Of a stretch of DNA of 64,000 bases, positions 1,665-57,991 are shown piece by piece; within the stretch, counting starts at the first letter, position 1, and each line of letters begins with the position of its first letter. The position numbers were made by a program, and so were the translations under genes. The stretch spans positions 6,124-70,123 of the forward strand of contig DAOQYW010000007.1 in assembly GCA_035343375.1 (NCBI GenBank), given 5' to 3'. The stretch comes from Bacteroidales bacterium. Its GTDB lineage: Bacteria; Bacteroidota; Bacteroidia; Bacteroidales; ML635J-15. Under the pieces are notes generated by a model, which saw only the letters and a program-made list of their open reading frames with translations, ran no database searches and was not told the DNA's origin.

Positions 1665-4193
1665 CTATTCTTTGTCTTTACTTATTTTAATAGTGATTCC
1701 TGTTTTTTCACTAAACCCGACAGTAATTGTATCACCTTGTGATATCTCTGCTTTAATAATAGTTTCGGCCATAGCATCTTCAACATATTTTTGAAGTGCT
1801 CTTTTTAATGGTCTGGCACCAAATTTTGGGTCAAAACCTCTTTCAGCAATATAACTTTTAGCAGCCGGAGTAAGTTTAATATAATAACCAAGTTCTTTAA
1901 CTCTATTATATAAACCTTTCAACTCTATATCAATTATTTTGAAAATGTCTTCTTTTGAAAGCGAATTAAATAGAACGACATCGTCAATACGATTTAAAAA
2001 TTCCGGAGCAAAAGCTTTCTTTAATGCTGCTTCAATAATACTTTTAGCATTTGCATCAATACTTGCTTTTCTTGCAGTGGTATCAAAACCGACGCCTTTA
2101 CCATATTCAGACAGTTGTCTTGTCCCAATGTTTGAGGTCATGATAACTATAGAATTTCTGAAATCAATTCTTCTACCAAGGCTATCAGTTAGTCTTCCTT
2201 CGTCTAAAACCTGAAGCAAAATATGAAATACGTCAGGATGAGCTTTTTCTATTTCGTCTAATAATACGACAGAATAGGGTTTACGTCTTACTTTTTCAGT
2301 GAGTTGGCCGCCTTCTTCATAGCCAACATATCCGGGAGGTGCTCCAACTAAACGAGATACGGAAAATTTCTCCATATATTCGCTCATATCTATTCTAATA
2401 AGAGCATCTTCTGTGTCGAACAGATATTTAGCCAAAACCTTTGCCAATTGCGTTTTCCCGACTCCTGTAGGACCAAGAAATACAAATGTCCCAATAGGTT
2501 TATTAGGGTCTTTTAATCCAGCGCGGTTACGTTGAATTGCCTGAACGACTTTTTTAATTGCATTTTCTTGGCCAATTACACTACCCGCAAGTTCTGCCTC
2601 CATTTGTAATAATCTGTTACCTTCGGTCTGAGCAATTCTTCTAACAGGTACACCTGTCATCATAGCAACAACTTCTGCTACATTTTCTTCATCAACAGTT
2701 TCGCGTCTTTCACTAATTTCTTTTATCCACTGATCTTTAGCAAGTTCAATTGCATTTTCAATTTCTCTCTCTTTGTCACGCATAGAAGCAGCTTTTTCGA
2801 ACTGCTGATCTTTTACAGCTTTAAGCTTCATATTTCGTGCATTCTGAAGATCTTCTTCAAGCTTAATAATTTTATTTGGCACAGAAGCAGTAGAAATATG
2901 AACTCTGGAGCCGGCTTCATCAAGAGCATCAATTGCCTTGTCGGGTAATGCCCTGTCGCTAACGTAACGCATGGTTAGTTTAACGCAGGCTTCTAAGGCG
3001 TGGTCTGTATATGTTACCTTATGATGGTCTTCGTATTTTTCCTTAATTTTATGAAGAATCATTAATGTCTCGTCAGGACTGGTTGCTTCAACCATTACTT
3101 TTTGAAAACGGCGTTCTAAAGCTCCGTCTTTTTCAATATTTTGTCTGTATTCGTCAAGAGTTGTTGCACCAATACATTGTATTTCGCCTCTTGCTAATGC
3201 TGGTTTTAACATGTTGGCAGCATCTAGTGAGCCTGTTGTACCCCCGGCACCGACAATAGTATGAATTTCGTCAATAAACAATATTACATCATTTGCTTTT
3301 ACTAATTCATCAATTATGGCTTTCATTCTTTCCTCAAATTGTCCACGATATTTTGTTCCTGCAACAATTGAAGCCATGTCAAGAGTAATTACTCTTTTAT
3401 CAAAAAGCAAATGAGATACTTTTTTTTGTATTATTCTTGCAGCAAGACCTTCGACAATAGCAGATTTTCCTACACCGGGCTCACCAATCAACACAGGATT
3501 GTTCTTTTTTCTTCTTGACAATATCTGAGAAATACGTTCAATTTCCGTATCTCTACCAACAATTGGGTCAAGTTTGCCTTCTTCAACAGCTTTTGTGAGG
3601 TCCACGCCAAAACTGTCAAGTACCGGAGTGTCCGATTTCGATTTACTCGTTGTCCTTCTTGATGCACCTGGATCTGCCGATGAACTTCCATAAGGTCCGG
3701 AACCGGAATCTTCGTTTTCATCTTCATCATCATCATCAGAAGACGCAGAACCTGTAAACTCACTCATTTCCATACTCATTTTTACCATATCATATTCAAT
3801 ACTAAATTCATCCAGTAATTGTGAAAAGCGGCTTGGAACTTTTAATATAGCAAGAAGTAAATGTCCAGTATTTATTTCGTCAGAGTTAAGAGATATGGCT
3901 TCCGAATACATAAATTTCTGAATTCTTTCTGTAGTCTTTGTAGGAACCACTTTATCCATATCATCCATAGTTAGCTCGTTGTTAATATTTTTTACGTGAG
4001 CTTCTATTTTTTCTTTTAGTTCGTGTATATTTATGTCCAATTCTTTTAGTATATCCACAGCTTCGCAAGACGATTCGCGTAAAATACCAAGAAACAGATG
4101 TTCAGGTCCTAAATAATCATTGCCAAGCCTAATGGCTTCCTCTTTACTGTATTGAATAACATCAAGCAATGACTGAGAAAATTTTCTTTTCAT
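1665..4193 (-). CDS. clpC: ATP-dependent Clp protease ATP-binding subunit ClpC
   Basis: Double Clp-N domain, two AAA+ modules (GEPGVGKS and GPTGVGKT Walker A; FIDEIH and LLDEIEKAH Walker B), short UVR-type middle coil, GARPLKR motif. Confidence 0.95.
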
Positions 4194-4263
4194 ATATATT
4201 ATCTAATTCAACTTTAAAAATATAAAACTATTTATTACAAACGAATAAATGATGTATTATTTT

Positions 4264-4299
4264 ACAAAATTACTAATAATTTTGTTAATATCGATATTA
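4264..4299. promoter_or_regulatory. Two adjacent palindromes containing opposed -7 boxes in the clpC/gyrA divergent promoter region
   Basis: ACAAAATTA-ctaa-TAATTTTGT (4264-4285) contains TAATTTTG on both strands; it is followed by the perfect palindrome TAATATCGATATTA (4286-4299). Confidence 0.35.
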
Positions 4300-4553
4300 G
4301 TAAATAAGAGAAGCTTAGTTTTTGATTTTTTTAAGTTTTGTAATAATGATTTTCATTGGAAAATGCAGTTACTTAAATTAACTTAAACAATGATTAAGAT
4401 GCAAATCAGACAAATTTTTATAAACATAAATTGTTGAAAAGTAACCACAATCTTGAAAAATTTAACAAAAGAAAAGTACTATTTTAGTAAACTTTTTAAA
4501 AAATACACAAAAGGTTGAAATATAGTGAAATAGAAATTTAAAATCAAAGGATT

Positions 4554-7127
<2,574 letters not shown>

Positions 7128-49068: not shown

Positions 49069-50713
49069 TATGTACTACTTTTCCTATTCTGTTCCATCTG
49101 ATTCCGCCATATTCTTTATCTCGTGATAACCATATAAGCCATGCTTTTCCAACAACGTGGTCTTCGGGAACAAATCCCCAGAATCTTGAATCTGCTGAAT
49201 TATGTCTGTTATCACCCATCATCCAATAGTAGTTCATTTTAAATGTGTATTCAGTTGTTTCTTTACCATTAATGAATATTTTATTTCCTTTAACTTCAAG
49301 AGTATTATGTTCATAATATCCGATTATTCTACTATATAAAGGCAGAATTACAGTATCAAGTTTAATAGTAGCTCCTGCAGCTGGAACATACATGGGGCCA
49401 AACCAGTCAACATTCCATTTGTAATTATCGTTGTGGGGGAAAATTCTAAATCTTTCACTATAGTCAGCAATAGAATCTAACACATCTTTTTTAATACTTT
49501 TAATAAAAGTCATTTTTGAAAATTTGTCAAAATTTGCTTTTGTCAAAGGAATTATAAATGCACTGCCAGCATCTGTAAATCTTATATCAGATTTGTTTAT
49601 TTCGTATTCTTTTAATACTCTTTCAGGAATATCGCTTCCATCTGTTTGAACAACATAGTTAAATTGTTTTGTAGGAATATCTTTTTGAGCTTTACCATTT
49701 ACAAAAACTTCTCCATTTTTAACCTGTATTGTGTCACCTCCAACAGCAACACATCTTTTGATGTAGTTTTCTCTTTTATCAACAGGTCTGATTATAATTT
49801 CATAAACGTCCCAAATAATTTGTCTGGCCATTTTATCATAATCGGCCTTTGTTTTAATTCTTGGTCCGCTTTTGTAAAATTCTTTATCATATTCCTGCAT
49901 TTTTTGAACGGCAAGTTGTAATAACTCATTTGTATGTGCAGGGTTAGCATTTGGATTAAAAAGATGAAAAGCAAGTTCACGATAATATTCCGGAGACTTT
50001 GGATTTACGATTACGCTCGAATCTCCTTTGACACTGACTAAAACGGCATAATCATATTCCTGCATCAGATATGAGGCAATTCTGACTATATCGTAGTAGT
50101 CCTGAGCCTGATTTTGAACGCAGACAGTATCGCCAGTTGGATAATTGAAAACAACCATATCGTCACGTTTCACTTCTCCCCAGCCAACCATACGTTCGTA
50201 TTCGTTTTGTATCCATAAGAGGTACGAAGGAGTCGATTTCGTTAATGGTAGTGTGTGATGAACAAACGGAAAGGAGAGTGGAGTCATTGGAACTCTTGGA
50301 CCGTAAGCGACTTTACTGACAAATAAATAGTCGCCGACCAGTAAAGTCTTTTCCATCGAAGATGTCGGAATAGTAAATGCCTCGAAGAAGAAAATCCTGA
50401 TAAATGATGCAGCAATTACTGCAAATATTAATGCATCAACCCATTCAAGAGTTTTTCGGGCTATTTTAGTGTATTTTTTATCTTTTTTTGGCTTCCAGAA
50501 AGCCCATCTCACTTTTTTAGTGATATAAATGTCAACTATAATTATTTCACCTATAAGCCACCAATAGCTGCCCATCCAGACAACCCACAAAATATAACAG
50601 ATACTTACAACCGCAAACCAAATCCATTTGTTTTTAAGCTTTTGAACAATACTGCTGTTAGCGATTTTTGATTTTAATCCTAAATTTTTCGTTTTTGTTG
50701 TTTTTTGTGCCAT
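49058..50713 (-). CDS. lepB: Signal peptidase I
   Basis: [14 protein letters not shown] (Ser), ENYIKRCVA (Lys) and [17 protein letters not shown]. Confidence 0.93.
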
Positions 50714-50715
50714 AA

Positions 50716-51432
50716 TTATAGTTTTAATAAGTCACTCATCGAAAATACTCCGATTTTGCCAATAACAAATTCAGCCGCCATAATAGCTCCTTGTGCCAGT
50801 CCTCTTCTCGACTTTGCTGAATGGCTTATGCTGATTATATCAATGTCATTTTCCCATATAATTTTATGATCTCCATAAATTTCACCTTCTCTAAACGAGT
50901 TGATTTCTATTTTATTTTTTTCATTACACGGATTTAACATCCATTTAACATATTTTGGATTATTCTTAATAATTCCATTTGCTAAAGTTATTGCAGTACC
51001 GCTTGGTTTGTCTAGCTTATGAATATGATGAGTTTCTTCAATTTTTGCTTCATAATCATTAAATCCCGACAAAAGTTCAGCAAGCTTTTCGTTAATCTTC
51101 ATAAATACATTAACTCCAATGCTAAAATTTGAAGCATAAAATACTGCTGCCGAATTTTTGATGCATAATTTTTTAAACTCATCTTTATTTAAATCCCATC
51201 CTGTTGTACCACTAACGACTGAAATGCCGTTCTGTAAACAATTGATAACATTTTGTTTAGCTGAATTGGGGGAAGTAAATTCTATAGCAATGTCTGCAAT
51301 AGATTTTAGATTTTCGCTAATTTTATCGGTTGTGTTAATATCAATAACAGCAGTAATAGTATGCCCACGCTCTAAGGCAATTTGCTCAACAGCTTTGCCC
51401 ATTTTACCGTAACCAATTAGTGCAATTCTCAT
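50716..51432 (-). CDS. dapB: 4-hydroxy-tetrahydrodipicolinate reductase
   Basis: [41 protein letters not shown] and G-x-H. Confidence 0.95.
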
Positions 51433-51540
51433 AATATAATTTATGTTGTAAAAATACTATTATTTTTTGAAGCAATGTAATTTAAGAAATTAAAATATTG
51501 TTTAGCCTTTAATTATTCTTCCTCCCAACCATAACCACCA

Positions 51541-51567
51541 CTCCAACGCGAATGACTCGCGCTGGAG
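51541..51567 (+). repeat. REP-like palindrome 1 (degenerate centre)
   Basis: CTCCAACGCGAATGACTCGCGCTGGAG. Confidence 0.9.
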
Positions 51568-51591
51568 TTTGAGAGTTTGAGTTGGTGAAAT

Positions 51592-52263
51592 CTAAAATTT
51601 ATAACACAAACTAACTCGCCCTATTGCGCTAATGTGATTGAAATATCCAATAAAATCATTGCTGCCTTTTAGTACGACTTGCAGTGGAAGACCATAATCG
51701 TTAATTTCTCTAATGTACCATTGTTTTGGCGAGAAACCAAATCCGCCGGTAAGGTTTATGCAAAGTTTATCAGTGGGATATAGTTTATATCCTGTAAGTA
51801 ATCCTATAGATATTTTATGTTCTTTTAAACTAATAGTTAAGTTATTGTTTTCTGCATACTCAATTTGTGCAGGGGTAAATTCGTCAACATTTTTCACAAA
51901 ATTGTGTAAAAGCCAATACCTTGCATAAATGCCGTAATAAAACGCATCAACTTCTTTGGCATTAGTTTTATATTTCTTTAATTCTAAATTAGCAAAGCTA
52001 TTGTGCTTACGGTGGTAAATCGGGTCTTCTGTTATTATTCCATAACTTTTCTTTGAATAAAATGAACCCCCCAAGCTAAAACTTATTTTATTATTAAACT
52101 TATGCTCCACTGCAAGTCCGGGTAAATCTAGAATGCCTCCGTATATTGATACCTCAGTTTGAGTAAATGCTTTTACTAGGATTAGTTGAAAAACTGCTAG
52201 AATAATTATTTTCATCAACAGCCATTTAAAGTTTATAATATAATCGCTTTTATTTGAATGCAA
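51592..52263 (-). CDS. Outer-membrane beta-barrel protein (DUF3575-like); likely start ATG at 52215
   Basis: Signal peptide MKIIILAVF..FTQ; amphipathic strands (YYGIYARY, SIGLLTGYK, NLTGGFG); terminal SLCYKF; own TAAATTTG -7 box at 52261-52268 on the - strand. Confidence 0.7.
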   Translation of the reverse strand: MHSNKSDYIINFKWLLMKIIILAVFQLILVKAFTQTEVSIYGGILDLPGLAVEHKFNNKISFSLGGSFYSKKSYGIITEDPIYHRKHNSFANLELKKYKTNAKEVDAFYYGIYARYWLLHNFVKNVDEFTPAQIEYAENNNLTISLKEHKISIGLLTGYKLYPTDKLCINLTGGFGFSPKQWYIREINDYGLPLQVVLKGSNDFIGYFNHISAIGRVSLCYKF

Positions 52264-52318
52264 ATTTATTTAAGTTTTCTAAATCTCCAAAGTGTATTAT
52301 TCTCGCCAAACTCCAAGA

Positions 52319-52345
52319 CTCCAGCGCGAGTTACTCGCGTTGGAG
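52319..52345 (-). repeat. REP-like palindrome 2
   Basis: CTCCAGCGCGAGTTACTCGCGTTGGAG, the reverse complement of copy 7. Confidence 0.92.
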
Positions 52346-52366
52346 TGGTGTCTTTACATTCCAAAA

Positions 52367-52393
52367 CTACAGCGCGAGTTACTCGCGCTGGTG
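52367..52393 (-). repeat. REP-like palindrome 3
   Basis: CTACAGCGCGAGTTACTCGCGCTGGTG, with a perfect inner stem. Confidence 0.88.
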
Positions 52394-52399
52394 AATTGA

Positions 52400-52477
52400 A
52401 TCTTTACAATTTTTTCATTATTCAATGTTTATATCTAATATTCCACCAATTCCTGAATAATTCCTTGCAGATGAATA
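52400..52477 (-). pseudogene. Diverged fragment of a RAYT 3' end
   Basis: Encodes YSSARNYSGIGGILDINIE* versus FSSARNYSGMCGVLDIIIE* in the intact gene (52520-52595). Confidence 0.85.
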
Positions 52478-52483
52478 CCCAAA

Positions 52484-52510
52484 CTCCAGCGCGAGTTACT
52501 CGCGTTGGAG
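52484..52510 (-). repeat. REP-like palindrome 4
   Basis: CTCCAGCGCGAGTTACTCGCGTTGGAG, identical to copy 2. Confidence 0.92.
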
Positions 52511-52535
52511 TTACAGAATATCTTTACAATTTTTA

Positions 52536-53090
52536 TTATTCAATGATTATATCTAAAACTCCACACATTCCTGAATAATTTCTTGCAGATGAAAACTTAT
52601 ACTCTGTTGCATATGATACAAATCCCGCATCAACAGGATTTAAATGAATATAATTAAGTTTTTGTTTAAAAATCTTTTCTGTACTAATTTCAATAGGATG
52701 AAAACCATCTTGCCAAAACTTGTATTTCCAATTTCTTCTAATACGTAATCCTTCATTCCTAAAAACCGTCAGCATTTTATTTTTATCCCCTGATAGTTCC
52801 ATTTCCTTAATGATTTTCACAGATGTAAATTTTTTCATATCACGCATTATATTACTAATCCTTATGTCATTCCCTCTTGCAATAATGTGAAAATGAGTCG
52901 GCATTAAACAATAAGCGTACAATTCCATACCTTTATGATTCTGACAAAAGCGTATTGAGTCTATAAGTATATTAATATATTTTTCTTCAATAAATACCTT
53001 TTCCCAGTTTACAACTGTACTTGTAATAAAATAAGCTTTGGTATCGTCATGGGCTTTGTAATATTCTGACATGAAGTAATGTTTAGACAA
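52536..53090 (-). CDS. REP-associated tyrosine transposase (RAYT/TnpA-REP, Y1 HUH family); likely start ATG at 53072
   Basis: YFITSTVVNW..VF, YAYCLMPTHFH (HUH), MRDMKKFTS, WQDGFHP, QKLNYIHLNPV (catalytic Tyr) and FSSARNY; no frameshift or stop. Confidence 0.92.
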   Translation of the reverse strand: MSKHYFMSEYYKAHDDTKAYFITSTVVNWEKVFIEEKYINILIDSIRFCQNHKGMELYAYCLMPTHFHIIARGNDIRISNIMRDMKKFTSVKIIKEMELSGDKNKMLTVFRNEGLRIRRNWKYKFWQDGFHPIEISTEKIFKQKLNYIHLNPVDAGFVSYATEYKFSSARNYSGMCGVLDIIIE

Positions 53091-53095
53091 AGATA
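53088..53095 (-). promoter_or_regulatory. -7 box of the transposase promoter (duplicated at 53238-53245)
   Basis: TATCTTTG on the - strand, 15 nt before the ATG at 53072; an identical box precedes the duplicated ATG at 53222. Confidence 0.55.
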
Positions 53096-53133
53096 ATTAA
53101 TAATAAGATAGGTTAATGAATAGAATTACCAAA

Positions 53134-53160
53134 CTCCAACGCGAGTAACTCGCGCTGGAT
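53134..53160 (+). repeat. REP-like palindrome 5
   Basis: CTCCAACGCGAGTAACTCGCGCTGGAT. Confidence 0.92.
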
Positions 53161-53166
53161 TGGTTG

Positions 53167-53283
53167 GTACTTGTAATAAAATAAGCTTTGGTATCGTCAT
53201 GGGCTTTGTAATATTCTGACATGAAGCAATGTTTAAACAAAGATAATTAAAAATAGGATAGGTTAATGAATAGAATAACCAAA
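53167..53283 (-). repeat. Tandem copy (150-bp offset) of the transposase promoter and first 18 codons
   Basis: 53167-53283 versus 53017-53133: 5 substitutions in 117 bp; the 56 coding bp are identical. Confidence 0.92.
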
Positions 53284-53318
53284 CTCCTCCAGCGCGAGTA
53301 ACTCGCGCTGGAGGAGTT
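53282..53318 (+). repeat. REP-like palindrome 6 (extended perfect 18-bp stem)
   Basis: AACTCCTCCAGCGCGAGT-A-ACTCGCGCTGGAGGAGTT. Confidence 0.92.
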
Positions 53319-53359
53319 GAATTAAAATGTTTTTTTAGACTTTAATTATTCTTCCCAAA

Positions 53360-53386
53360 CTCCAACGCGAGTAACTCGCGCTGGAG
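53360..53386 (+). repeat. REP-like palindrome 7
   Basis: CTCCAACGCGAGTAACTCGCGCTGGAG. Confidence 0.92.
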
Positions 53387-53403
53387 TGGTTGAGCAGTGG
53401 TAT

Positions 53404-54630
53404 TTATTCTACGTGACTCCATCTAATGGCATATTCATTCCCCACAATATCAGCGTATGAAATAGTTACAATTTCAACATTATCAATATTTATTTCTTCC
53501 GGAACAATTACATTGGAATAATCAGAAATGATATCGTTTTCATTTTCACCAATTACAATACAATCTTCACCATTATCCTTTTTTTGTATTTCAACTCTAA
53601 GCCATGTAACAAAAGCAGGAGCCTCAACATTTTGATTATCTGAACTTTCATAAGTAATCATAATATTTGTCACCTTACCAGTGTTATCAGTTATTAATCT
53701 GGGACGAGCCAAAACAAGGAATCTTTCAACATCAATTTTATAGTAATGGAGTTTATAAAAGGTAGTTCCATCAAGGCTGAAATTATAAACACCTGTTTCA
53801 AAAGGTTCTCCATCTGAACGATCAAAGGTTGATTGAAAACCAAATTTACAATTTGGGTAATAAGAGTAATTGTCTCCAACATTGATATTTGTATGGGGAT
53901 TTCCTTCCGGACCGTTAAAAGCTACATTTATATGTTCAGGTATAATTCCATAACCACCTCGTATATTAAAGAAATATTCAATAAACGTCTCTTGCAAATC
54001 CGGATTAATTTCATTGTACAGCTGAGCTTCTGTTTCATTTACTCCACAAGCCCCGGCATGCACTCTGAACATTGTGTTTATCATCATGTGAGAGTCGGTA
54101 AAATAATCAGGTTTTCCATCCGAATCAGTATCAATATTCTCTGCCAAGGATTCATAAAATGCTCCTAATTCCTGCAGTAATTCAATAAATTCTTCCGAAA
54201 TTAGAATTTCGTTACCAACCGGGTCATTCGAAGGATAAACTCTATCGCCATCAAGGGTTAATTCTGATAAATCAATTACAGTGTTTTCTCCGTCTGACAA
54301 ATTCACCAATGGTAACATATTCATGCCTCCAACAGAAAGGTGTCCGATATATTCAAGTTTTTTGGTAACAAAAATTAAAGCTGTAGCAGAACCCGGAGGA
54401 GCATATAATGCAAAAGATTCATCATCAATTTCCACAACCTCAAACATTTGGCCGTAAATGACCATAATTTTATCAGCATCGGCTAAAGTCAGTCCGCTTT
54501 TAGTTGATTTTGTTTTATTATTTGTCAGTGTTCCTTTAATTAACACTCCATGATCGAGGTTATTGTTATCTTTCTTGCATCCAATAAAGATAATTATTCC
54601 TAAACAGATTGTTATGATTAAAAATTTCAT
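53404..54630 (-). CDS. Hypothetical lipoprotein
   Basis: Lipobox IIFIGC; contains DTDSDGKPD (DxDxDG Ca-binding-like loop). Confidence 0.72.
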   Translation of the reverse strand: MKFLIITICLGIIIFIGCKKDNNNLDHGVLIKGTLTNNKTKSTKSGLTLADADKIMVIYGQMFEVVEIDDESFALYAPPGSATALIFVTKKLEYIGHLSVGGMNMLPLVNLSDGENTVIDLSELTLDGDRVYPSNDPVGNEILISEEFIELLQELGAFYESLAENIDTDSDGKPDYFTDSHMMINTMFRVHAGACGVNETEAQLYNEINPDLQETFIEYFFNIRGGYGIIPEHINVAFNGPEGNPHTNINVGDNYSYYPNCKFGFQSTFDRSDGEPFETGVYNFSLDGTTFYKLHYYKIDVERFLVLARPRLITDNTGKVTNIMITYESSDNQNVEAPAFVTWLRVEIQKKDNGEDCIVIGENENDIISDYSNVIVPEEINIDNVEIVTISYADIVGNEYAIRWSHVE

Positions 54631-54661
54631 AAAAATTTTATTGTAAATATACTCAATTTAT

Positions 54662-56899
54662 TTATTCAAACCATTTACGCATTATTTTTAAAATATCATC
54701 CTCAGTATATGGTTTTGAAATATAATCATTACATCCAGTATTTAGAGCTTTTTGTTTTTCTTCATTTAAGGCATAAGCGGTTTGAGCAATAATAATTATA
54801 TCCTTGTTTAGATTTCGTATTTTTTTAGTAAGTTCATATCCGTCAATACCTGGCAATTTCATATCCATAAAAATTACGTCAGCATCAGAATGCTTTTTAT
54901 ATAGTTCCAGTGCGTCATCTCCGTTTGTGGTAGTAAGTATTTGATTACTAATAGGCTCAAGAAACTTTTTTAACAAAGATATAGCATCATCACTATCGTC
55001 AACAACCATTATCTTAAGTCCTTTTTTAATTTTATTTGTTGTATCTGAGTTGTTTTCTTTAATGTTTTCTATAGTTTTTGAATCAACTTTTTTATAACTT
55101 ATCGTGAAGTGAAAAACGGTACCAATATCAGGGGTACTTTCCGCCCAAATTTTGCCTCCGAGCATAGTTACATAAGCTGAAGATATTGATAATCCTAATC
55201 CTGCACCTTCATATCCACGACTATGAGAATTACTTGCTTGTCTGAATCTTTCAAATATTAACTCAAGCTGGTCTTGTGGAATTCCCTTGCCTGTGTCTTT
55301 TACATAAAATTCAACAAACTTTCCTTTCTTTTGACAGCCAAATTCAATACTTCCTTGTTTTGTAAACTTTATTGCATTTTTTATTAAATTGGTAAGTATC
55401 GCATACAATTTTTCTGAATCCGTTTTTATATGAGATTCTTCCGGGGTTAAAGAGTTATTACAAATCAACTTAATGCCGTTTTGTGTTGCTTCAGGTAAAA
55501 AGAATGCATATTGATTTTCCATTACAGAATTAATATCTGTATCTGAAAAATAAACTTGCATCTGACCTGATTCAATTTTGGAAATATCAATAATATCGTT
55601 GATAATATTCAACATTCTCATTCCGCTCTTTTCTATCAAACTAATGTATTCCTTTTGTTTTTCGCCTGTTAGGTTTGGTCTTTTTAATAAACTCGCAAAG
55701 CCTATTATTCCATTCATTGGCGTACGAATTTCGTGACTCATATTGGACAAAAATGCCGATTTAAGTTGATCGCTTTCTTCGGCTTTCTCTTTAGCTTTAA
55801 TAAGTTCGTTTTCGGTATGTTTTCTACTAGTTATATCTCTCGTTACACCATGAATCCCAATCAGTGTACCTGCTTCATCTAAATATGGTGTTACTATAAG
55901 TTCTCCCCATTTGGTAGAACCATCTTTACAAATATATTCCATTTCAAGAATACTCGTGTATTTATTGTTTTTCTCTTTAGCGTTCAAAAAATTTTTAACC
56001 TCATTTTCCAATATTTTCTTGCCTGCTATAGCCGATTCCAAAGTAAATCTTTCATCAATTGTTTGATTCATGTATTCATCAACTGTAAAGCCTGTAAATG
56101 ATTCGATGGAAGGGGAGACAAATAAGCTTTTGCCTTTAAAATCCATAAGCCAAACGACATCTGTCATTTTTTCTGCTAGTTGTTTGTATTTGCTTTCGCT
56201 GCTACGCAAAGCCAATTCAGTATTCTTTCTTGCTTGCAATTCTTTTCTTAAAGATTTGTTTTTTGTCTTTATTATTAGAAGAAAAACAAGAAGAATTAAA
56301 AACAACAAAACAATTAATGAAGATTGAAATAGCTCATACAACATATTTTTTTTCCATAAAGCTGCATTAAAATCCATCCCGAAAACGGCAATAACTTCTT
56401 TATTTTCTTTATCCAAAACGGGCACCATTACGCTTACCCATGTTCCCCATCTGTCAGTAATAGGCTCTGAGATGATAGTACGGTTTTCGTAATATGGTAT
56501 ATAAACGCTGGAATCGGCTTCGACAAACTCCTGACCAGCAGGCGAATAATCAGGAGAATCTATGGGTTCTGAATCTGCAATAAAGAATATTTTACCTTCT
56601 CGCAGAGTATAAAGATATGTAAATCTCGATTCAGGATTTACTGTCATAAGTGCCCCTAATAGCTTTTTTAGCTCAAAATATTCTTTTTTATTCAGATCTG
56701 ATTTTGTTGCATTAAGGCTGTCGATCAATTCATGAGGTAACATTATCTCAATAGATTCGGCAATTCGTTGTATTCTAACAAGATTTTTTGTTTCTATTTT
56801 GTTCCAAGAATAGTTGAGATAAAAAAAACCTCCAATTATTGCAGCTATAAAAATTAGTATTTCCGGTAAGATATTTAAAAAGAATTTCTTTTTATTCAT
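54662..56899 (-). CDS. Hybrid sensor histidine kinase/response regulator with PAS domain
   Basis: TM-periplasmic Cache-like-TM; PAS (DVVWLMD..FVSPS..GVTRDIT); FLSNMSHEIRTPMNG; NAIKFT, DTGKG and GLGL boxes; REC domain (VVDD, FMDMKLP, SKP). Confidence 0.92.
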   Translation of the reverse strand: MNKKKFFLNILPEILIFIAAIIGGFFYLNYSWNKIETKNLVRIQRIAESIEIMLPHELIDSLNATKSDLNKKEYFELKKLLGALMTVNPESRFTYLYTLREGKIFFIADSEPIDSPDYSPAGQEFVEADSSVYIPYYENRTIISEPITDRWGTWVSVMVPVLDKENKEVIAVFGMDFNAALWKKNMLYELFQSSLIVLLFLILLVFLLIIKTKNKSLRKELQARKNTELALRSSESKYKQLAEKMTDVVWLMDFKGKSLFVSPSIESFTGFTVDEYMNQTIDERFTLESAIAGKKILENEVKNFLNAKEKNNKYTSILEMEYICKDGSTKWGELIVTPYLDEAGTLIGIHGVTRDITSRKHTENELIKAKEKAEESDQLKSAFLSNMSHEIRTPMNGIIGFASLLKRPNLTGEKQKEYISLIEKSGMRMLNIINDIIDISKIESGQMQVYFSDTDINSVMENQYAFFLPEATQNGIKLICNNSLTPEESHIKTDSEKLYAILTNLIKNAIKFTKQGSIEFGCQKKGKFVEFYVKDTGKGIPQDQLELIFERFRQASNSHSRGYEGAGLGLSISSAYVTMLGGKIWAESTPDIGTVFHFTISYKKVDSKTIENIKENNSDTTNKIKKGLKIMVVDDSDDAISLLKKFLEPISNQILTTTNGDDALELYKKHSDADVIFMDMKLPGIDGYELTKKIRNLNKDIIIIAQTAYALNEEKQKALNTGCNDYISKPYTEDDILKIMRKWFE

Positions 56900-57076
56900 A
56901 AATACTATTTTGAATTGTCTAACTGAAAAGTTTCAAATAATATGTACCAAAGTTAGATAAATTTATAATAAATACATATTTATTTAGTATTTATTTTTTT
57001 GTATGACCGAATTCTTGTATAGAAGAATATTTAGACATTATGACAAAATCTTTACTAGTCGGAAGAGAACTGGCAT

Positions 57077-57991
57077 TTACGACAATTTTAAACCGCCAAT
57101 AATTTCTTTTATATCTTTTATTCCGTTTCGTTTGCAGAAAACTTCCAAACCGTGGATTATCTTTACAGTAATGTCAGGTTCGATAAAATTTGCAGTTCCA
57201 ATTTGAATGCATGATGCACCGGCCAGTAAGAATTCAAATGCATCTTCAGTTGTCATTATGCCCCCCAAGCCGCATATAGGTATTTTTACAACTTTGGATA
57301 CTTGCCAAACCATTCTGATAGCTATGGGTTTAATTGCTGGTCCAGAAAGTCCTCCTGTAACTGTCGATAGCTTGGGCTTTCTGGTTTTTACATCAATAGC
57401 CATTCCGAGAAGAGTATTGATTAATGATATACTATCAGCTCCGTTATCTTCTGCCGTTTTAGCAATTGAAGCAATGTCTGTTACATTTGGAGAAAGTTTG
57501 ACCATTAGGTGCTTTTTGTAAACTTTTCTTACAGCTTTAATAACTTCTGATGCTGCATCACAACTTGTCCCAAAAGCCATTCCACCTTCTTTTACATTTG
57601 GACAGGATATATTTAATTCTATAGCTGGAATATTATCGAGTTCATTAATCTTTTCAGAAGTCTTAACATAATCTTCTATTGTTGAACCACTTACGTTAAC
57701 AATGATATTAGTCTTATAATCTTTGATTGAAGGATAAATGTCATTACAAAATACATCAACTCCTTTGTTTTGTAAACCCACTGCATTTAGCATTCCTGAA
57801 GGCGTTTCGGCCATTCTTGGATACGGATTGCCTTCTCTGTGTTTTAACGTTGTGCCCTTAACAATAAAACCACCCAATTGATTTAAATTGATAAAATCGG
57901 CAAATTCGTTACCATAGCCAAATGTTCCTGAGGCTGTTAATACCGGATTCTTTAACTTTAATCCGTTAAAGTCTATTTCAAGATTTACCAT
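57077..57991 (-). CDS. pyrD: Dihydroorotate dehydrogenase B, catalytic subunit
   Basis: [47 protein letters not shown] and [10 protein letters not shown]. Confidence 0.95.

Follow-up and report, generated by a model that had tools for sequence, protein, structure and literature searches.

Copies of RAYT gene ends between REP palindromes at a Bacteroidales locus, with candidate junctions of REP-anchored duplication

We analysed a window of 64,000 nucleotides (nt) from a Bacteroidales bacterium of the GTDB group ML635J-15 (GenBank assembly GCA_035343375.1, contig DAOQYW010000007.1, forward-strand positions 6,124 to 70,123), in which a gene for a REP-associated tyrosine transposase (RAYT, or TnpA-REP) lies among copies of a repetitive extragenic palindrome (REP) and among partial copies of its own two ends. 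The intact gene (52536..53072, minus strand) encoded 178 amino acids (aa) and was identified from the list of open reading frames (ORFs), Pfam, NCBIfam, PDB and a residue alignment. It scored 107 bits against the NCBIfam model NF047646, "REP-associated tyrosine transposase" (cut-off 80), matched Pfam PF01797 (Y1_Tnp) with an E-value of 5e-9, and had E. coli TnpA-REP (4ER8) as its sole PDB relative. The HUH motif was H60-F-H62 and the catalytic Tyr lay within Y141-IHLNP, with H60, H62, Y141, N145 and P146 invariant across eight homologues. By length and motifs (xHxH, WQ, YIH[LN]NP) the protein resembles the Bacteroidetes subclass 2.6, or RAYT group 5, which has been described as ~179 aa long with NH[LIV]H, WQ and YIH[QN]NP motifs and atypical flanking structures (Quentin 2018, PMC6006769; Bertels 2017); FWQ and YIHLNP were present (YIHNNP in relatives), and the HUH motif read T-H-F-H, not N-H-x-H. 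The gene occurred once in the genome, beside one paralogue of 39% identity with its own REP type, and is a single- or low-copy gene that is not like an insertion sequence (IS). An autonomous IS200/IS605 element was considered and rejected on a score of 16.9 bits against NF033573 (cut-off 55) and on the lack of a second gene copy in the genome.

A 15-nt palindrome core, CGCGAGTWACTCGCG, was found six times in the window against 0 expected, with three GTTAC-loop copies to the left of the RAYT gene and three GTAAC-loop copies to the right; about 24 cores were counted on 10 contigs across the 3.7-Mb genome. Orthologous loci (L002-L006 in the survey described below) carried related palindromes (CGCGAGTTACTCGCG or a variant), and a further one (L007) carried a different palindrome. 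The REPs, to which no strand was assigned, were placed by repeat finding together with core counts, alignment or the table of junctions. Downstream of the gene these are REP_L1 (52476..52516), which adjoins the gene's 3' end and whose gene-distal foot forms a junction with a 3' fragment, REP_L2 (52359..52399) and, outermost, REP_L3 (52311..52351; core CGCGAGTTACTCGCG). Upstream are REP1 (53126..53166), REP2 (53279..53319) and the outermost REP3 (53352..53392). Relative to REP1, REP2 carries 3 inserted nt in one arm, with compensating changes in the other arm that make it a perfect palindrome (18+1+18). This perfection looks like the outcome of hairpin-templated (quasipalindrome) correction of a canonical imperfect REP, and comparison with an outgroup indicated that it is derived. 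Only REP2, which is terminator-like for the upstream 408-aa gene, REP_L3 and REP_L2 gave terminator-like scores among the window REPs; REP1 did not.

Between REP1 and REP2 the start of the gene is present a second time. Positions 53017-53137 are repeated at 53167-53287 (121 nt, 96% identical, period 150), and the repeat finder and an exact alignment agreed on the 150-bp tandem unit with 56 identical coding bp and five non-coding differences that an earlier note, made from the letters alone, had described. The coding stretches (53017-53072 and 53167-53222, with ATGs at 53070-53072 and 53220-53222) differed at 0 of 56 positions and the non-coding remainder at 5 of 65 (53077, 53086, 53101, 53106 and 53127). 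The proximal promoter and leader, which belong to the live gene (53073..53125, minus strand), hold a TATCTTTG box at 53088-53095 and four of the five substitutions, the fifth (53127) lying at the edge of REP1. Across the junction at 53166/53167 follows the 5' fragment (53167..53222, minus strand), an exact copy of RAYT codons 1-19 (56 nt) by ORF list, repeats and alignment; read as an ORF, it continues through REP1 to give 41 aa from its ATG. Behind it is the distal promoter and leader (53223..53278, minus strand), which keeps the TATCTTTG box on the same strand at 53238-53245. Both units terminate in a REP hairpin, REP1 and REP2 respectively. The 150-bp unit is a tandem duplication of a REP hairpin, the promoter and the first 56 nt of the RAYT gene. 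With two nested units on the 3' side, the number of REP-anchored duplications here comes to at least three.

On that side, positions 52412-52486 correspond to 52530-52604 (85% identity, period 118), which confirmed that the 3' end of the gene is also held between hairpins. The 3' fragment unit (52400..52475, minus strand; from repeats, tblastn, alignment and outgroup) comprises the last ~55-58 coding bases, a stop codon (52418-52420) and the downstream spacer. In frame it reads SSARNYSGIGGILDINIE before the stop, compared with SSARNYSGMCGVLDIIIE in the live gene, and tblastn against the RAYT gave 67% over 24 aa. The shortest nested unit, placed by repeats and the junction table, is an 8-nt stub of post-stop sequence, TCTTTACA, between REP_L3 and REP_L2 (52351..52358, minus strand). 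The 3' fragment has kept ancestral I-G-G codons, shared with the outgroup, where the live gene now has M-C-G, and the outgroup comparison gave it three or four changes of its own, non-synonymous changes among them. Because it retains the ancestral codons, it is a decaying fossil of an older gene end.

A seventh, degenerate REP with an ATGAC loop lies further out (51533..51573, no strand assigned), placed by repeat families. It shares with REP3 the AT-rich flank of ~36 nt that precedes it (51488-51573 and 53320-53392), and this AT-rich direct repeat brackets the RAYT gene and a 223-aa ORF (51592-52263). The two REPs have the same core orientation, with their short outer flanks (CCAAAC and GTGGTG) swapped.

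Repeated palindromes invite mis-joins within a metagenome bin, and the source genome is a metagenome-assembled genome (MAG) of 131 contigs. We located other assemblies by the exact RAYT protein. On contigs from ENA (ERZ27257442) and JGI (3300025859), the entire REP/RAYT locus matched the window at 100% identity (0 differences in about 1.2 kb), and both duplications were present. One NCBI MAG contig (GCA_029558535.1; L101) was identical except that exactly 150 bp were gone, so that REP2 and the distal promoter join the full gene directly. The lack of one unit in that assembly could speak for a mis-join. Against this, two independent assemblies from different pipelines carry the duplication, the units are distinct at five positions and in their REPs, the junction k-mers are unique, and the same architecture occurs in isolate genomes or long contigs (L080, L095, L088 and L024). 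That the structure is an assembly artefact we regard as having next to no probability, in keeping with the earlier note.

To order the changes we used L104, a metagenome contig of a sister lineage with about 93% nucleotide identity in the gene. Upstream of its gene L104 has a single, simple REP-promoter-gene unit and no fragment. Compared with the window gene, the RAYT of L104 lacks 1 nt at L104:1841-1880, a frameshift that may be a sequencing error or mark a pseudogene. The distal promoter matched L104 at all five differing positions and is of the ancestral type; at each of them it is the proximal copy, which now drives the gene, that has the derived base. The distal promoter and the 56-nt fragment show no derived change, the perfect palindrome of REP2 being the derived part of that unit. 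From the single unit in L104 and this polarisation, the duplication predates the sampled population and postdates the split from L104. We considered L101 as the ancestral, unduplicated allele and rejected it, since it carries the derived REP2 with the distal promoter; its one-unit state is either a secondary loss through the 56-nt perfect repeat or an assembly collapse.

The same polarisation bears on the coding identity, in which the earlier note had seen perfect conservation of the fragment. The identity itself stands, at 0 of 56 differences; selection on the fragment does not follow from it. All five changes fell in the proximal promoter, and therefore coding conservation needs no selection on the fragment, as the live copy is under purifying selection and the distal unit is unchanged outside its REP. 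Within the window the contrast between coding and non-coding positions is weak by itself (binomial p = 0.045), and weaker still when the purifying selection that acts on the live gene is taken into account. The proximal promoter holds 5 of 5 derived changes (two-sided p = 0.06); it is speculation that this faster change reflects relaxed constraint after a second promoter was gained.

The earlier note had also proposed that the fragments are hairpin-bounded small RNAs or decoys, or the entries of a self-recording REP array. In such a reading, the distal promoter would drive a short REP-terminated RNA or the 41-aa peptide, which would regulate, titrate or guide the RAYT. The intact TATCTTTG box and ATG of the distal unit and its unchanged coding part are in favour, as is the contrast of 13/278 non-coding with 7/515 coding differences when three loci were pooled (p = 0.007), and the Bacteroidota-type box with its ATG may form a second promoter or open the 41-aa read-through ORF. 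Against it, the five differences are derived in the proximal promoter and were not avoided in the fragment. Fragment lengths range from 13 to 399 nt over loci, non-RAYT DNA was captured in the same way (C65 and L002, below), the 3' fragment decays with non-synonymous changes, L101 lacks the 5' unit, and REP1 is not terminator-like. An Rfam scan of 51400-53500 returned only sub-threshold matches to palindrome-rich models (the best, WsnRNA46, reached 36.9 bits against a gathering threshold of 65.3), and a scan for sigma-70 promoters, with a model not built for Bacteroidota promoters, gave no excess of sites over shuffled sequence. As for recording, the spacers (8, 76, 109 and 32 nt) are all copies of adjacent DNA, the REPs of the two sides are inverted, and at C65 it was non-RAYT sequence that was copied. 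No plausible acquisition (cas-like) gene of a CRISPR-like recording array was present among the ORFs surveyed in window positions 50000-57000, most of which were viewed without a domain search. We therefore hold a functional fragment or a recording array to be very improbable. Nothing points to a dedicated function of the fragments, which decay after they have arisen, and the extra promoter could incidentally change RAYT expression.

Similar structures recurred elsewhere in this genome. At the second RAYT (C6:57130-57672; 39% identity, with another type of REP), 42 nt of the 3' end of the gene are present again immediately behind the first REP and GCGGGG (C6:57640-57706, repeated at 57716-57782). 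Its REP type, seen over C6:57064-57870, is TGTCACAAGATGCAATCTTGCGACA followed by GCGGGG, and one REP there is split by a 22-nt loop insertion. At C65 a 234-bp tandem unit (C65:3988-4221 and 4222-4455) is 100% identical and involves a gene that is not a RAYT: it comprises ~190 nt from the 3' end of an unrelated gene together with a REP and its GCAG tail, with no microhomology at the junction. C65:3988-4455 is the cleanest and most recent case of the REP-anchored process.

We then evaluated 100 Bacteroidota RAYT loci from reference genomes and 68 from metagenomes (L numbers); the GC-rich hairpin detector failed on AT-rich or long REP types, and L056, L066, L091 and L099 were either inspected by eye or given no class. 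REP-anchored gene-end fragments were present at roughly 15 independent loci, or about 8-10% of the survey. The earlier note had counted a lack of such fragments at other RAYT loci among the signs against its idea; they are a recurrent feature. Tandem units of REP, promoter and 5' fragment preceded the gene in L024 (a Bacteroidales MAG, on a 1.7-Mb contig; 59 nt), in the L143 group from four samples (81 nt), in L093 (153 nt), and in two isolates, Olleya namhaensis DSM 28881 (L095; 158 nt) and Flavivirga jejuensis KACC 14158 (L080; 399 nt). Units of 3' fragment and REP followed the gene in L025 (13 nt), L055 (15 and 20 nt), L148 (77 nt), L150 (79 nt) and an Ekhidna chromosome (L088), which had four such units from diverged alleles; with L043 included, 3' fragments ranged from 13 to 93 nt. 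Dispersed, non-tandem copies of a REP with its flank were found at L043, L055, L099, L090 and L159. Copies outside the gene were found for 17 of 100 RAYT genes and for 21 of 182 neighbouring ORFs, and host flanks were often duplicated around the cassette; we therefore rejected the idea that duplication is specific to RAYT genes. At L002 a 50-nt flank outside any gene is duplicated, with one copy behind a full REP and the other behind a half REP.

Several further repeats were seen at the surveyed loci. Half-REPs at L002 (1249-1269 and 2241-2262) end exactly at the loop, and L007 has at least eight head-to-tail copies of a 28-nt half-REP, one hairpin arm (2185-2436 and 1305-1447), beside a RAYT pseudogene with one in-frame TAA. 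In L015, L024 and L077, direct repeats of host flank of 94-276 bp, including neighbour-gene ends, bracket or flank the REP-RAYT-REP cassette (for example, L024:1410-1659 with 2966-3205, and L077:1688-1781 with 2585-2678). The 276-bp repeat, at L040, is a tandem duplication downstream of the cassette.

The junctions share a geometry. When set in one orientation, 19 of 19 ran from the hairpin through a short G-rich tail, usually 3-12 nt long (such as TTTGG, GGTTG, GCAG, GGG, AGCATGGG or AGCAG), into variable captured DNA. In each of them a point that varies is linked to one that is fixed, just a few bases past the gene-distal foot of the REP. Read 5' to 3' toward the gene, the duplicated unit begins a few bases outside the REP, crosses it and ends at a variable, unspecific point; no motif marks this far end, whose position ranges between 8 and 399 nt. 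The same tail point was reused by independent nested events within one locus (the window, L055 and L088). In at least nine independent loci the REP-side strand of the hairpin has an A/C mismatch 4-8 bp from the foot, and so the complementary strand, which starts at the junction and runs through the REP into the captured DNA, carries a G.T wobble. For the clade of the window RAYT, the tail point, given on the complement of the predicted cut strand, falls directly after GGAGTTTGG or GGTTG. Two unrelated genomes (L043 and L088) have different REP hairpins followed by the same tail, AGCATGGG, which may, by analogy with GTAG in Proteobacteria, serve this clade of RAYTs as a conserved tag for recognition or cleavage.

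TnpA-REP is known to cut single-stranded DNA (ssDNA) just 5' or 3' of a REP, with a 5'-phosphotyrosine and a 3'-OH as products, and the covalent bond can in turn be resolved by any 3'-OH (PMC8266576, PMC3333891); this cleavage and joining biochemistry comes from the enzymes of E. coli, Stenotrophomonas and Marinomonas (PMC8266576). Nunvar et al. proposed that REP-adjacent nicks prime replication into the rayt gene (PMC2817692). From the junction positions and this literature we consider it probable that the REP-anchored duplications, whose structure is observed, were produced by a RAYT nick at the REP foot, displacement synthesis and strand rejoining. The RAYT, a Y1 HUH enzyme, would nick ssDNA at the fixed tail point on the strand with the G.T wobble and remain on the 5' end. 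The freed 3'-OH would prime synthesis, displacing the REP-bearing strand, until synthesis stalls at a variable point and the phosphotyrosine bond is attacked by the 3'-OH of the growing strand. This would join the new copy head to tail with the old one, with a junction between a variable stop and the fixed REP foot and with no homology required, and a piece that lands at another REP would become a dispersed copy. A fixed origin with a variable terminus would amount to one-ended, rolling-circle-like copying, and the gene ends would be captured because REPs flank the RAYT gene. The earlier note had suggested ssDNA excision and re-integration by the RAYT with a breakpoint at the hairpin. Fixed REP-foot junctions on one strand at many loci are in accord with the RAYT link and the hairpin breakpoint; excision and re-integration fare less well, as tandem duplication fits the anatomy better.

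Some observations weigh against this mechanism. The fixed inverted layout of REPs around RAYTs is a partial confounder of the orientation of the junctions, and only C65 is free of it. At C100:3443-4310 a 435-bp tandem duplication (98% identical) has its REP in mid-unit and its junction away from the REP. REP1 and REP2 diverge more than the rest of the unit, which calls for an extra event (quasipalindrome correction). Partial microhomology lies near the junction of L024 (CTGGTCG and CTGTTCG) and near the 3' junction of the window (A.ACTC), as would suit template switching. In L080 the gene (2001-2540) and the 399-nt fragment (1529-1927) have the same in-frame TAA (MRDF-stop-KFTS), and therefore the duplication postdates inactivation of the local RAYT and would have needed a RAYT in trans.

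Hairpins are hot spots of slippage and template switching, and a replication error could have yielded the same tandem duplications without a RAYT if a REP hairpin formed, the polymerase left at the hairpin foot and synthesis re-primed upstream. This background counts for such an error, as do the likeness of REP2 to a product of hairpin-templated correction, the partial microhomologies and the duplication at L080 after its RAYT had gained a stop codon. On the other hand, inspection of three clean cases (C65, the window 5' junction and L080) found no junction microhomology, and the break comes only when copying has passed through the entire palindrome, at an unvarying distance past the far foot and in every case on the same strand of the hairpin. 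Reuse of the tail point by independent nested events and the dispersed copies of REP and flank (L043, L055, L099 and L159) also speak against an enzyme-independent error, which we consider unlikely.

The fragments might instead be the remnants of whole extra REP-RAYT-REP cassettes, two or three in tandem or nested, of which only the ends were left after internal deletions. Second full or large partial copies do exist (L045, L057, L163, L037 and L023), the 3' fragments of L088 come from clearly different alleles with different REP types, and the 3' end and REP units are sometimes found upstream of the gene (L043 and L055). Yet this route takes at least two steps per fragment, its deletions must again stop exactly at the REP tail, and it leaves unexplained the duplication of non-RAYT sequence at C65 and the 8-nt stub in the window; the outgroup L104, moreover, has one simple upstream unit. 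We regard an origin from decayed cassettes as distinctly improbable.

The REP-foot nick with displacement synthesis may also be compared with systems already described. In enterobacteria, tandem REP arrays of the bacterial interspersed mosaic element (BIME) class BIME-2, in which a REP and a short linker are amplified head to tail, have reportedly been described by Gilson and by Bachellier, and Shyamala and colleagues are said to have found REPs at the join-points of tandem chromosomal duplications in 1990. The window shares with these the head-to-tail repetition of REP and flank and the presence of REPs at duplication joins, but its unit has a REP at one end only, the other end being a variable non-REP point, and homologous exchange between REPs therefore cannot explain it. 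One-ended or read-through rolling-circle transposition by HUH enzymes is a feature of the IS91 family and of Helitrons, Y2 or Rep-helicase transposons that move whole elements. The likeness, of mechanism and not of membership, lies in a fixed, nick-defined origin end, a variable far end that captures host flank and joining without homology; the domesticated Y1 enzyme of the window, in contrast, would copy pieces of 50-470 nt, mostly in tandem beside their source. Members of IS200/IS605 (IS608, ISDra2), which move by peel-and-paste transposition, also combine a Y1 HUH enzyme with sub-terminal hairpins and cut one particular strand at a set distance from the foot of the hairpin. However, IS608 has two defined ends for excision and a tetranucleotide target, 3' of which it inserts, whereas the window units have only one defined end.

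By every feature that could be checked, the locus reads as a REPtron. As in that of E. coli (yafM/rayT; PMC2817692, PMC3333891; 4ER8), a single-copy Y1 HUH gene is bracketed by inverted, cognate, imperfect palindromes, further copies of which are scattered in the genome, and an asymmetric stem mismatch marks one strand. It departs from the E. coli REPtron in its inter-REP spacers, which duplicate the promoter, the start and the 3' end of the RAYT gene itself, in the low number of REPs in the genome (about 24 cores in 3.7 Mb), and in REPs that have a G-rich 3' tail after the hairpin in place of a GTAG tag. The nearest published oddity is found in tnpA-REP genes of subclass 2.4 from Bacteroidetes and Cyanobacteria, in which the gene is intact and carries the cognate REP as an in-frame insertion (Quentin et al. 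2018, PMC6006769). There, too, REP and RAYT coding sequence are physically intermixed; the window gene, in contrast, is intact and free of REPs, and it is beyond the gene, between REPs, that its two ends are found again. The REP/RAYT papers covered by a limited keyword search held no description of copies of RAYT gene ends between flanking REPs, a result that does not prove novelty. The window locus is a new structural variant of the known REP/RAYT system.

The mechanism behind genomic REP patterns has been stated to be unknown (PMC3333891), and REP dissemination to be poorly understood (PMC8266576). We tentatively suggest that the junctions are natural, strand-resolved footprints of RAYT action in vivo, in which the REP serves as an origin-like nick site and the REP with variable downstream DNA is copied by displacement synthesis and strand transfer, then pasted in tandem or at another REP. 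If so, this would offer a concrete mechanism for the growth of REP clusters and BIME-like arrays and for the spread of REPs with pieces of their flanks, and would predict the cleavage point and strand for Bacteroidota RAYTs, which are biochemically unstudied. Since the scar recurs, with one end fixed at the REP foot on a specific strand and the other end free, REP multiplication becomes directly testable, and culturable carriers exist. For annotation, short ORFs or "pseudogene" calls beside RAYTs and duplicated gene ends beside REPs would be expected debris and not separate genes. The main value of the locus would lie in the natural map that it provides of the site and strand of RAYT action.

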